This document shows positions 6,382 to 35,415 of a DNA stretch of 40,276 nucleotides, in pieces. Both the position numbers and the translations under genes were made by a program. The notes under the pieces are model-generated. The model saw nothing but the letters and a program-made list of their open reading frames with translations, was not told where the DNA came from and did not search any database. The DNA is from a virus: UHGV virus genome UHGV-0069047; one strand, given 5' to 3'. Within the stretch, counting starts at the first letter, position 1. Each line of letters begins with the position of its first letter.

Positions 6382-6485
6382 GTTAAATCTCCAGATAGTC
6401 GCAGCACCCGTTGCGCCGCATATCTGGTTATTCTATTACCCAAAAAACCATATATGGATAGAAAGACTGTGAATATGAATAGATA

Positions 6486-6500
6486 TTACCTTTCAGGTAA
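6486..6500. promoter_or_regulatory. operator-like palindrome TTACC-TTTCA-GGTAA
   Basis: Perfect 5-N5-5 inverted repeat, intergenic. Confidence 0.5.
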
Positions 6501-6537
6501 TTTGCAAAACGTGCTGGATAGCAAACAAATTATTTGC

Positions 6538-6557
6538 TACTGTATAAATATACAGTT
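6538..6557 (+). promoter_or_regulatory. LexA (SOS) box upstream of antirepressor module
   Basis: TACTGTATAAATATACAGTT matches CTGT-N8-ACAG with AT-rich spacer, 5 nt before the first ATG. Confidence 0.6.
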
Positions 6558-6577
6558 ATTGCATGGAGAAGATTAAG

Positions 6578-6835
6578 ATGCAGCAGTATAACTATCCACT
6601 GGAAGACGGATTTACCGAAAGGATTCACACGCCGGGAGGCGTCAGGTCACTGGTGGAGGGATCGCACTTGATGAAATTACTCCGGGATCTCGATAAGGAT
6701 GGATTTAATGTCGATGGCCCACTTGCCGAACTGACTGCACTGATTAACTACGTCACCAGCTCACAGATGTCTATGCAGGATCTGCAAACACATCTCGACT
6801 ATTGTGCCGAACAATTACGAAAGCAAACCAGATAA
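6578..6835 (+). CDS. small protein homologous to the C-terminal domain of the adjacent antirepressor
   Basis: Aligns with the C-terminal ~70 aa of the 7153..7809 product; SD GGAGAAG before ATG 6578. Confidence 0.45.
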   Translation: MQQYNYPLEDGFTERIHTPGGVRSLVEGSHLMKLLRDLDKDGFNVDGPLAELTALINYVTSSQMSMQDLQTHLDYCAEQLRKQTR

Positions 6836-6866
6836 GGTTTGCAATTACCAAGTGGAGTGCTTATAT

Positions 6867-6881
6867 TTACCTTTGCGGTAA
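6867..6881. promoter_or_regulatory. operator-like palindrome TTACC-TTTGC-GGTAA
   Basis: Perfect inverted repeat, upstream of antirepressor gene. Confidence 0.45.
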
Positions 6882-6972
6882 ATTTACATCGCACTCCTCT
6901 TGTGCCATAGTAATCAGGCACTGGCAAAATCCAGTGCCGGGATTGGTCTCCCGGATTACTAAGTGGCGCATA

Positions 6973-6995
6973 CCACGCCAGACGTGGTTTTTTTA
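6973..6995 (+). terminator. rho-independent terminator
   Basis: CCACG-ccaga-CGTGG followed by TTTTTTTT. Confidence 0.55.
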
Positions 6996-7152
6996 TGCGT
7001 ATAGCACAGTCATGCCAGAATTATGGTGGGCTGAATGGGGGTCCGAAAGGACGCCGGTACCACTTAGGCCGGTAAGACCAACTCCGTTCAGTTCACCACC
7101 ATCTGATTGGTCTCAGCGGTGGTGATGTAATTCGCTAAGTGGAGACGCCATC

Positions 7153-7809
7153 ATGAACGCTCAACTCATCCCCGTATTCAACGGCACTATATCTAACGAA
7201 ACAGCCCTACTTTGTAATGCCCGCGATCTGCACGCTTTTTTAGGTGTTAAAAAGGTGTTTGCAGCATGGATTACAAATCGCATTTCAGAATACGAATTCA
7301 TTGAAAATCAAGACTATATTTTGCTTTCCAATTTGGGAAAGCAAACATCTGGTAGAGGCGGACACAACCGCAAAGAGTACCACCTCACCCTTGATACAGC
7401 CAAAGAGCTGGCGATGGTCGAGCGTAACGAAAAAGGTCGCCAGGTGCGACGCTACTTCATTGAATGCGAGAAACGTTTAAGACAACAAGAAACAAAAGTG
7501 GAGAAGGTCTTGTCAGGCTTCATGCCCGCCATTATGGAGGCGATCAAGCTGGAAGACAAAAAAGAATACAGTGCACCGCTGAAGCCCGGCTACCGGAGCC
7601 TGATTCATTCGCCGTCTGGTGTTCTCGGCCTGACGGAGAACTCACTGCTGATGAATTTGCTGAACCAGTTACAGGAAGACGGGCATGACGTATCGGGCGC
7701 GGCGGCGGAACTGACCACCATGTTCTGCTACATCGTTGGTGTGAGCAAATGCCTGCGTGATATCCAGACTCACGCGGAGTACATCAACGACAAAGCAGGA
7801 TTCTTCTGA
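7153..7809 (+). CDS. antirepressor (AntA-type N-terminal domain)
   Basis: N-terminal block (IPVFNGT...[10 protein letters not shown]...[32 protein letters not shown]) matches the AntA/AntB antirepressor domain as I recall it; SD GGAGACG. Confidence 0.65.
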
Positions 7810-7853
7810 CTAGCGGCGGCACAGGGATGTGCCTTTAAATAATTCTGTACAGA

Positions 7854-7896
7854 TTGCAGACTGGGGGTGAATAGAGTACTATTACCCCAAAGGTAA
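7854..7896 (+). promoter_or_regulatory. sigma70-like promoter (TTGCAG-17-TACTAT) overlapped by operator TTACC-CCAAA-GGTAA
   Basis: -35 at 7854-7859, -10 at 7877-7882, palindrome at 7882-7896, strong SD GAGGGGG follows. Confidence 0.5.
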
Positions 7897-7922
7897 ACCG
7901 AGAGTTTACATGAGGGGGAAAC

Positions 7923-25631: not shown

Positions 25632-25708
25632 GTGGCATTAGCTCAGTTTGACAGAGCAACCGCCTTCTAAGCGGTTGGTCGCAGGTTCGAATCCTGCATG
25701 CCACGCCA
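25632..25708 (+). tRNA. tRNA-Arg (anticodon UCU), phage-encoded
   Basis: Hand-folded cloverleaf: 7-bp acceptor GTGGCAT/ATGCCAC, D-stem GCTC/GAGC, anticodon stem ACCGC/GCGGT with loop CTTCTAA, T-arm GCAGG-TTCGAAT-CCTGC, encoded CCA. Confidence 0.85.
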
Positions 25709-34830: not shown

Positions 34831-35415
34831 ATGAAAAGTATCCAGGACGTCCGCAGGCAAAATCTCAACGACTTGATCGACCGTGAATTCAATGGTGTTC
34901 AGACGCGGATGGCAGAAAAACTTGGAACTCAGGCAAATCTGGTAAACCGCTGGGCTCTTGGCAAGAAGGTTATCGGCGACCAGGTTGCGCGAAAAATTGA
35001 AGCTGCCGCCAATAAACCACGTAACTGGCTTGATATCGATCGCTCGCTTTCTCAGGAAGGTTTTCAGCCTGTCGGCCCAAGCGACATTGGTCAGCTGGCG
35101 GCTCACAACCTGGAACGCTGGATGAGCGAAAGCCGCGACCTTTCAACACAGGGAAAACTTCACCGCGCATCCGGCGTCGCCCAGGTGACAATCAGCCGCC
35201 TGTTAAACAATGAGGTCAGCGTTTCCATTTCCACCCTGGAGAATGTTGCATCCGCATTCGGGCGTCACGGCTATGAATTACTGATTCACCCGCACGACCC
35301 TGCGACCATCAACTATGACCGCTCGCGCTACGCATTGTTACCCGAAACCGAGAAAGCAAAGATCGAAAGTTACATTGAATTTGTCATCAACCAGAACGAA
35401 AAAAACAAACAATAA
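34831..35415 (+). CDS. prophage repressor-like protein lacking an S24 peptidase domain
   Basis: 194 aa with two HTH-like segments, no Ala-Gly / Ser-Lys autocleavage module; divergent from cro-like gene. Confidence 0.55.
   Translation: MKSIQDVRRQNLNDLIDREFNGVQTRMAEKLGTQANLVNRWALGKKVIGDQVARKIEAAANKPRNWLDIDRSLSQEGFQPVGPSDIGQLAAHNLERWMSESRDLSTQGKLHRASGVAQVTISRLLNNEVSVSISTLENVASAFGRHGYELLIHPHDPATINYDRSRYALLPETEKAKIESYIEFVINQNEKNKQ

Follow-up and report, generated by a model that had tools for sequence, protein, structure and literature searches.

A structured segment upstream of ant in a Uetakevirus genome is an IsrK-like, c4-a1b1-type RNA

The structured segment that precedes the antirepressor gene ant in a 40,276-nt virus genome (UHGV-0069047; this whole stretch of DNA is termed the window) is an IsrK-like, c4-a1b1-type RNA, a kind that is already known and experimentally studied and whose member here is unannotated. 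We consider it probable that this RNA serves as leader small RNA in an immI antisense module of the P1/P7 type, which controls Ant of a Uetakevirus prophage, and that it acts by titrating the antisense RNA C4. The argument builds on RNA family matches, exact complementarity between short sites, three-way covariation of these sites among loci, and an architecture common to phage P1 and Gifsy-1, all drawn from sequence comparison. The initial annotation had described a non-coding segment (6884–6995) within about 300 nt holding no convincing open reading frame (ORF); the ORF list bears out the limits of this gap (upstream ORF stop at 6835, ant ATG at 7153), and no conserved ORF is present between them. 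These ~300 nt of seemingly “empty” intergenic DNA hold two RNA genes (Table 1), which probably decide antirepressor synthesis of the prophage.

The window represents an epsilon15/phiV10-like podovirus of the genus Uetakevirus. Its 6400–7900 stretch is 97.5% identical to Escherichia phage phiv142-3, a 325-nt core recurs with 100% identity in a chromosomal prophage of E. coli, and megablast matches to this 325-nt stretch were obtained in 467 of 5,426 complete E. coli genomes (64 at an identity of at least 99%). One such copy, at 99.1% identity, lies in E. coli IAI39 (NC_011750, 2757085–2757409). RNA annotation of the stretch is absent from one RefSeq record and from the closest phage records, and the phiV10 record annotates just a “putative rho-independent terminator” here. 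In the literature searched, we found no link of C4 antisense RNA with the genus Uetakevirus, and the words “antisense” and “sRNA” are absent from a Uetakevirus study (PMC9782041). The module proposed here would extend P1-type antisense immunity to epsilon15/phiV10-like podoviruses, in a version whose C4 would target ant directly. It would furthermore link the Salmonella IsrK and P1 c4 a1/b1 literatures, which are usually cited apart (three papers in the literature searched name both), and it does not overturn current understanding.

Table 1 Positions of regulatory sites, RNAs and genes around the ant leader in the window
Feature	Position	Strand	Basis or remark
Promoter-like site TTGCAA-17-TATATT	6839–6867	+	consensus scan alone, 9/12 positions; weak
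Operator-like palindrome TTTACC-TTTGC-GGTAAA	6866–6882		dispersed palindrome family, conserved position
IsrK-like RNA promoter, -35 TTTACA, 17-nt spacer, extended -10 TGcCATAGT	6883–6911	+	promoter scan
IsrK-like small RNA (a1b1 decoy RNA)	6918–6995	+	Rfam isrK RF01394
Site a1 UUGGUCU, loop of hairpin 2	6943–6949	+	exact complement of C4 a'
Site b1 CUAAGUGG, linker 5' of terminator	6959–6966	+	exact complement of C4 b'
Terminator-bracketing helix GCGCAU (6966–6971) / AUGCGU (6995–7000)	6966–7000	+	present in homologues
Intrinsic terminator, 6-bp stem, 5-nt loop, seven U	6972–6994	+	terminator scan
C4 antisense RNA gene	7019–7103	+	Rfam C4 RF01695, 61.2 bits vs cut-off 45
C4 b' CCACUUAG, loop of second inner hairpin	7060–7067	+	complementary to b1 and b2
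C4 a' AGACCAA, single-stranded joint	7075–7081	+	complementary to a1 and a2
Site a2 UUGGUCU, ant leader, starts 4 nt past C4 match end	7107–7113	+	same as a1; complement of a'
Site b2 CUAAGUGG (7135–7142), overlapping ant Shine-Dalgarno GGAG (7141–7144)	7135–7144	+	same as b1; complement of b'
ant, 218 aa, AntA/AntB antirepressor domain	7153–7809	+	Pfam PF08346, E = 4e-26

The IsrK-like RNA, its terminator and its promoter region

An Rfam scan of the whole window returned three matches above gathering score, namely a tRNA, isrK and C4. The isrK match (RF01394, 6918–6994) is full-length (model positions 1–77) and, at 67.7 bits, exceeds its cut-off of 50 (E = 3e-14). With relaxed settings, c4-a1b1 (RF03163) was also matched, at 6905–6957; at 38.4 bits this match lies below its cut-off of 46.7 (E = 5e-8); most Uetakevirus-type homologues likewise reach 39–46 bits with this model. 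By these Rfam matches, the segment falls within a described RNA family. When folded as RNA, the check proposed in the initial annotation, positions 6884–6995 gave -45.5 kcal/mol compared to -27.2 ± 3.4 kcal/mol for 200 dinucleotide shuffles (z = -5.4), and none of the 200 shuffles folded as stably.

All three inverted repeats noted earlier can be read in the sequence: GTAATC (6910–6915) with GATTAC (6954–6959), GGCACTGG (6917–6924) with CCAGTGCC (6931–6938), and CGGGA (6938–6942) with TCCCG (6949–6953). The strong terminator was recovered by the terminator scan as a stem, ACCACG/CGTGGT (6972–6988), followed by seven T (6988–6994). The RNA is thus laid out as hairpin 1 (6918–6937), hairpin 2 (6938–6953), a single-stranded linker and the intrinsic terminator, and a fold of 6918–6995 shows both hairpins. 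As elements of RNA structure, the two inner hairpins are conserved among 34 homologues, with 95% of cells paired and compensatory changes in all seven pairs of hairpin 1, and with 93% of cells paired, again with compensatory changes, in hairpin 2. The outermost repeat fared differently: it overlaps the -10 element and, with ~53% of cells paired across the family, is not a conserved part of the RNA. We therefore rejected the outer helices (10–17/74–81 and 18–24/63–69 of alignment A1) as core RNA structure, given this low pairing (~53%) and a 5' arm that coincides with the -10 box. Separately, the loop of hairpin 1, GCAAAAUC, is strongly conserved and has no partner in C4 or the ant leader.

The terminator is bracketed by a further helix, which spans it and can therefore form in read-through RNA only. 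This helix is present at 5–9 bp in 34 of 34 homologues, in at least five co-varying versions; in an anchor-based scan, cognate arms paired over 7.0 bp and non-cognate arms over 5.3 bp, a modest contrast. The anchor-based scan replaced column pair counts for both the terminator and the bracketing helix, as MAFFT moves the 5' arms by 1–2 columns. The ant gene begins 158 nt 3' of the IsrK-like RNA.

Promoter alignments place the start of this RNA further 3' than the initial annotation had it. Briefly, the -10 box CATAGT (6906–6911) aligns with the annotated -10 of the P1 promoter P1c4/P51b and with the Gifsy-1 isrK promoter, its A and final T are invariant in the 34 homologues, and Gifsy-1 IsrK starts 7 nt past the equivalent box. 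From this alignment and spacing, the RNA most likely starts at G6918, and 6883–6911 would then be promoter and not RNA; the earlier segment start at 6884 falls inside the -35 box TTTACA (6883–6888). The promoter scan detected no further promoter between the IsrK-like RNA and ant, and the terminator scan found no plus-strand terminator between 6835 and 6972 besides the IsrK terminator.

The operator site reported upstream was also recovered, as the palindrome TTTACC-N5-GGTAAA (6866–6882), a member of a palindrome family with 14 matches in the window compared to 1.0 expected. It directly adjoins the IsrK promoter at its -35 box. Its centre lies ~44 nt 5' of the predicted RNA start in the window, and ~41–44 nt 5' of it in five of five Uetakevirus-type loci. 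The half-sites are kept at the same position, with a variable spacer, in phiv142-3, phiV10, Tyrion and Klebsiella phage ST512-KPC3phi13.3, and a pair of palindrome copies flanks a 194-aa HTH_3 protein (34831–35415), a candidate repressor. The weak promoter-like site at 6839–6867 overlaps the palindrome with its -10 box and predicted start. The upstream gene, of 85–90 aa, carries a conserved LexA box.

C4 RNA, its paired sites and the ant leader

The suggestion that the segment could be a small RNA or an attenuator of read-through into ant suits the family, given that Gifsy-1 IsrK is a discrete RNA of ~77 nt whose read-through yields antirepressor mRNA, but it overlooked C4, the targets of C4 in the ant leader and their decoy copies. 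The C4 match folds at -41.2 kcal/mol (z = -5.5) and reproduces the family structure, a long outer stem with two inner hairpins, leaving a' and b' unpaired; its 3' end is the tRNA-like ...CACCACCA. Site b' is the exact complement of both b1 and b2 over 8 nt, and a' of both a1 and a2 over 7 nt. The 8-mer CUAAGUGG has three sites in the 40 kb, which are b1, b2 and, as its reverse complement, C4, and we found no extra C4 targets elsewhere in the window.

We estimated binding from site-level duplex and opening energies instead of RNAcofold. Predicted opening costs were 0.0 kcal/mol for a' and 0.4 kcal/mol for b', and the decoys were cheaper to open (a1 1.4 and b1 2.7 kcal/mol) than the leader sites (a2 3.4 and b2 4.6 kcal/mol). 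With flanks included, the a1 duplex (-13.9 kcal/mol) was also predicted to be stronger than that of a2 (-9.6 kcal/mol), and these modelled site energies agree with a decoy design. RNAcofold gave ddG values of -1.1 kcal/mol for IsrK with C4 and -0.2 kcal/mol for the leader with C4 and failed to separate cognate from phiV10 partners; it is uninformative here because loop–loop contacts are pseudoknots, which the algorithm forbids.

Downstream of C4, the Shine-Dalgarno sequence overlapped by b2 sits 8 nt before the ant ATG. A gene identical to ant carries the RefSeq name “phage antirepressor Ant”. We found no coupling ORF of the icd or orf45 type between C4 and ant in the window. With b2 on the ant ribosome binding site and no such ORF, C4 would act on ant directly. 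A leader hairpin joining a2 with the Shine-Dalgarno region was considered and dropped (z only -1.2, not evident in phiV10). In phage vB_EcoP_ZX5, overexpression of the gene in the ant-equivalent position favoured the lytic cycle (PMC9782041); that equivalent belongs to the Bro family and shares only 39% identity with the phiv142-3 antirepressor.

To place the module among its relatives, 14 annotated phage loci were collected by a distant BLAST search (including phiV10, Tyrion, Klebsiella, Hafnia and Yersinia phages, APSE, phiP27 and lambdoid Stx phages). In all 14, isrK and C4 lie in tandem, ~24 nt apart, 5' of antirepressor-type genes. An IMG/VR scan with a 14-mer of the C4 5' strand delivered 120 more stretches, of which ~20 were not C4, and removal of these chance matches left 100 distinct C4-type loci. 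Constant offsets separate the elements of these loci: from the C4 start, a1 lies at about -75, b1 at about -59 and the U-run at about -30; past the C4 end, a2 lies at about +7 and b2 at +32 to +54.

In 77 of the 100 loci, a and b each show an exact three-way match of 5 nt or more at these offsets. The sites themselves vary widely, with at least nine a types and at least 15 b types in mosaic combinations; one locus (L065) joins the b type of the window to another a type. A b match of at least 6 nt was seen for cognate partners in 77 of 100 loci, compared to 8% of non-cognate combinations, and most of the remaining loci pair via G-U or one mismatch (e.g., the CP-1639 type). Judged from sequence, such three-way covariation strongly indicates pairing of C4 with both sets of sites.

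Proposed mechanism and competing explanations

In the mechanism that we propose, transcription would begin near G6918, from a promoter adjoining the putative repressor operator, and the majority of transcripts would end at the terminator (~6994), giving a ~77-nt IsrK-like RNA with a1 exposed on a hairpin loop and b1 on a single-stranded linker. Read-through transcripts would contain C4, which by analogy with P1 would be excised by RNase P, and whose a' and b' would bind a2 and b2 of the ant leader. As b2 covers the Shine-Dalgarno sequence, ant would stay untranslated and the prophage repressed. The a1 and b1 sites would be competitors for C4, acting in trans on the short RNA or in cis on the precursor; when in excess, they would titrate C4, freeing the ribosome binding site so that Ant is made and the prophage repressor inactivated. 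RNA expression, C4 processing, the block on translation and decoy action are carried over here from P1 and Gifsy-1 experiments. The earlier idea of read-through control needs amending, as the regulated step would mainly be ant translation through RNA–RNA pairing and not termination alone.

The main rival to titration is a role in cis only, in which a1 and b1 keep nascent C4 inactive or guide its folding or processing, and the short RNA is a by-product. It earns this place because the minimum-energy fold of the full 6918–7165 transcript contains the a1–a' and b1–b' pairings in cis, matching “structure A” of Gifsy-1 (PMC4825925). The conserved bracketing helix, able to form in read-through RNA only, points in the same direction, as do the weaker, interrupted U-run and below-threshold isrK match of P1. 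Against it stand the Gifsy-1 experiments, in which anrP translation increases more than 100-fold with IsrK in trans and in which the long-RNA change G173A, which weakens IsrK pairing, is partly offset by the compensatory IsrK-C18U in trans (36-fold activation, compared to 21-fold for wild-type IsrK) (PMC4825925). The short RNA is moreover abundant in Gifsy-1 lysogens, as is STnc1160, the RNA just 3' of IsrK, and a terminator with its U-run is kept at a fixed distance from C4 in nearly all of the 100 loci; we judge an exclusively cis role unlikely.

Were the RNA mainly an Hfq-dependent trans regulator of host mRNAs, with its link to ant secondary, its Rfam family name (“IsrK Hfq binding RNA”), its usual small-RNA layout of a single-stranded seed followed by a terminator with U tail, and a conserved hairpin 1 loop without partner in C4 or the leader would all be in keeping; yet variation falls exactly on the positions pairing with cognate C4, which fits a phage-internal partner and renders a chiefly host-directed role quite improbable. 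It is highly improbable that the segment is a plain terminator or insulator shielding ant from upstream transcription. Such an element would account for a strong terminator between two genes, with no other plus-strand one between 6835 and 6972, but it leaves the two conserved upstream hairpins and their compensatory changes unexplained, and exact duplicates of C4 targets that co-vary with C4 in 77 of 100 loci contradict it.

We give almost no credence to a small protein encoded in the gap (6995–7075, 26 aa; a 7013–7125 frame; or a minus-strand ORF, 6867–6971), even though ORFs of 26–107 codons can be drawn across the region, and several phage records in GenBank place CDSs over the equivalent RNAs. 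The ATG at 6995 is ATT, ATC, GTT or GTG in many homologues, and the frame opened by the conserved AUG (7023) of the C4 5' strand stops after three codons (7032–7034) in the window and runs from 3 to >47 codons among the 100 loci, a variation in length which argues that it is the RNA that is conserved. In the Gifsy-1 report, likewise, the nucleotide sequence of orf45 is conserved and its amino-acid sequence is not (PMC4825925). Since conservation is missing and the RNA family matches account for what is conserved, we rejected the small-ORF readings.

Beyond the titration of C4 by the IsrK-like RNA, a broader reading is possible, which we put forward tentatively: the IsrK class and the P1 a1b1 leader would be one device, a C4 sponge, the a/b codes would be exchangeable immunity specificities, and in this phage group the sponge may also be delivered by the SOS response. 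The LexA box upstream, together with the lack of any terminator before that of IsrK, would make the sponge the 3' end of an SOS-induced mRNA. If true, DNA damage would cause mRNA of the LexA-box gene to flood the cell with a1b1 3' ends, releasing Ant, and this SOS-fed RNA switch would work without the coupling ORF of P1 and Gifsy-1.

Comparison with P1, Gifsy-1 and other systems

The closest architectural match is the immI region of P1/P7 (c4-icd-ant), which shares with the window the order a1, b1, C4, a2 and b2, preceded in P1 by an operator and two tandem promoters and in the window by an operator-like palindrome and two promoter-like sites. We took the P1 parts from GenBank annotation (C1 operator Oc4, promoters P2c4 and P1c4, a1, b1, c4, a2 and b2), and the promoter-like site at 6839–6867 is analogous in position to P2c4 (P51a). 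As here, a2 of P1 directly follows c4 and b2 is placed over the first ORF's ribosome binding site, with a' in a single-stranded joint and b' in a hairpin loop; the a2-to-b2 spacing is 29 nt in P1 and 28 nt here, and b2 lies 11 nt from the ATG in both. P1 scores 51 bits for c4-a1b1, 68.8 bits for C4 and 35 bits, below threshold, for isrK (a terminator-like hairpin is included). The P1/P7 C4 precursor has been described as an RNase P substrate (Hartmann et al. 1995, as given in PMC2190699), and competition of a1/b1 with a2/b2 for C4 was proposed for P1 by Citron and Schuster in 1990 (quoted in the PMC2864571 supplement).

Several features nonetheless set the two apart. The P1 a/b sequences are UUGACAG and GUUAGUG, compared to UUGGUCU and CUAAGUGG in the window, so that the window phage and P1 would be hetero-immune. 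P1 has the icd coupling ORF, whereas b2 of the window lies on ant itself, and the window Ant (218 aa) is of the AntA-domain type. P1 is annotated with monovalent 17-bp C1 operators, unlike the symmetric TTACC-N5-GGTAA seen here, and the U-run after b1 is interrupted and weaker in P1, in contrast to the much stronger window terminator with its U7.

Gifsy-1 (isrK - orf45 (STnc1160) - anrP - isrJ) offers the experimental counterpart, with an IsrK above the Rfam threshold, a C4-family RNA ~24 nt 3' of it and then an antirepressor. On the Gifsy-1 transcript, IsrK spans nt 1–77 and the C4-family RNA nt 103–186; STnc1160 most likely corresponds to this C4 match. One promoter gives both short IsrK and an mRNA that reads through the terminator into the antirepressor, and its IsrK, the only one known to do so, binds Hfq and activates antirepressor translation in trans (PMC4825925). 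Its a1 site is U26–U32 (UUGGCGU) and its a' site A158–A164 (ACGCCAA), onto which the published compensatory pairs G28A/C162U and G31A/C159U (Table 1D, PMC4825925) map exactly. Pairing of a1 with a' is thereby experimentally proven in a family member, where it was named helix b-I, of IsrK with “orf45”, and IsrK carrying G28A or G31A was inactive in trans (PMC4825925). The authors attributed these data to a long mRNA that refolds and did not invoke titration of a processed C4-like RNA, and IsrK was not antagonised when the downstream RNA was co-expressed (PMC4825925).

Gifsy-1 also departs from the window in its coding content. It needs translation of orf45, whose start is the conserved AUG in C4 and which overlaps the anrP start, whereas the window frame closes after three codons. 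With the coupling ORF missing, the details of derepression may differ from both Gifsy-1 and P1. Gifsy-1 furthermore has isrJ and an adjacent Q-like antiterminator, neither of which is present in the window, and the context differs, as the window module lies between a tail-fibre gene and ant of a podovirus.

The Rfam family c4-a1b1 (RF03163; Weinberg et al. 2010) comprises a pair of hairpins, of which, as here, the second carries a1 in its loop and is directly followed by b1. Its optional “third stem” (PMC2864571 supplement) corresponds to the outer GTAATC/GATTAC repeat of the window. The Rfam model ends before b1 and the terminator, and its first 13 positions probably cover the -10 box.

More distant parallels are found in other phages. 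The immI region of P22 (mnt, arc, ant and sar RNA) is, like the window module, a second immunity region that silences an antirepressor and includes an antisense RNA; control is exerted mainly by the Mnt and Arc proteins, however, sar is a true cis-antisense transcript, and no C4 fold or decoy sites are known there. Satellite phage P4 resembles the window in having a processed antisense RNA with complementary sites up- and downstream on the same transcript, but the outcome there is premature transcription termination of replication genes, the RNA belongs to another family, and no antirepressor is known to be involved. It was the P4 CI RNA, with seqA and seqC, that the IsrK authors named as a structural analogue (PMC4825925).

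RNA elements around the IsrK terminator

The IsrK-like small RNA is accompanied by a helix that brackets its terminator, in which GCGCAU pairs with AUGCGU (Table). The AUGCGU arm lies just 3′ of the U-run, and the helix can therefore form only in read-through RNA. We found it in all 34 aligned homologues, where it is 5–9 bp long and occurs in at least five co-varying versions; it is not part of the Rfam isrK model. This helix may serve as a processing or stability element.

Within the same RNA, the loop of hairpin 1 reads GCAAAAUC, a sequence that hardly varies within one large subgroup of homologues; another subgroup has UUAUAAAGC instead. A search of the C4 antisense RNA and the leader of the antirepressor gene ant returned no complementary partner for this loop, whose role may be protein binding, perhaps of Hfq.

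Positions of features in the window and of CDS calls in comparison phage loci
Feature	Position	Strand	Source
LexA box	6538-6557		
85–90-aa ORF	6563/6578-6835		
Hairpin 1 loop, IsrK-like RNA	6925-6930		
Helix bracketing the IsrK terminator	6966-6971 / 6995-7000		
Candidate alternative hairpin (C4 outer stem 3′ strand / ant leader)	7093-7100 / 7118-7125		
tRNA gene	25632-25705	+	Rfam, 70.4 bits
HTH_3 protein	34831-35415		
TTACC-N5-GGTAA 17-bp sites	6485, 6866, 7881, 25296, 28490, 32367, 32429, 34712, 34760, 35472, 35534		
CDS calls across isrK/C4 RNA genes	L006 988-1671; L010 1131-1790; L013 770-1606; L005 1345-1542		GenBank records

An upstream ORF and the annotation of the RNA genes

Directly upstream of the 85–90-aa ORF lies a near-consensus LexA box (TACTGTATAAATATACAGTT, 18 of 20 positions matched), the sole copy in the window against an expectation of 0, which phiV10 and Tyrion also keep with an altered spacer. 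The ORF is similar to residues 128-210 of Ant (42% identity, E = 1e-21) and thus seems to encode the C-terminal domain of Ant as a separate protein under SOS control. A terminator scan found no plus-strand terminator between this ORF and the IsrK terminator.

In several GenBank phage records, the isrK and C4 RNA genes are overlaid by annotated protein-coding genes, labeled for instance “Ash family protein”, “immunity region” or hypothetical proteins. These calls probably arise because, in 55 of the 100 C4-type loci compared, the frame that begins at the conserved AUG within C4 runs on without a stop codon into the gene that follows. Among 5,426 complete genomes of E. coli, megablast matched the 325-nt module holding both RNA genes in 467, with at least 99% identity in 64 E. 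coli records; the one RefSeq E. coli record inspected carries no RNA feature at the module, only flanking CDSs.

Leader complementarity, dispersed palindromes and phage P1

Palindromes of the TTACC-N5-GGTAA family are scattered over the window (14 matches versus 1.0 expected). The probable prophage repressor, an HTH_3 protein of 194 aa, is flanked by such sites in pairs, the two members of a pair being 48–62 bp apart. Between the C4 target sites a2 and b2, the ant leader contains the stretch GGUGGUGA, which could base-pair with the 3′ strand of the outer stem of C4; this pairing would form an alternative hairpin displaying a2 in its loop. Most homologues keep GGTGGTGA. The scattered operator-like palindromes bring to mind the C1 regulon of phage P1, and P1 has a related version of the complementarity between leader and C4 stem, GGTAGCAGG versus CCTGCCACC.
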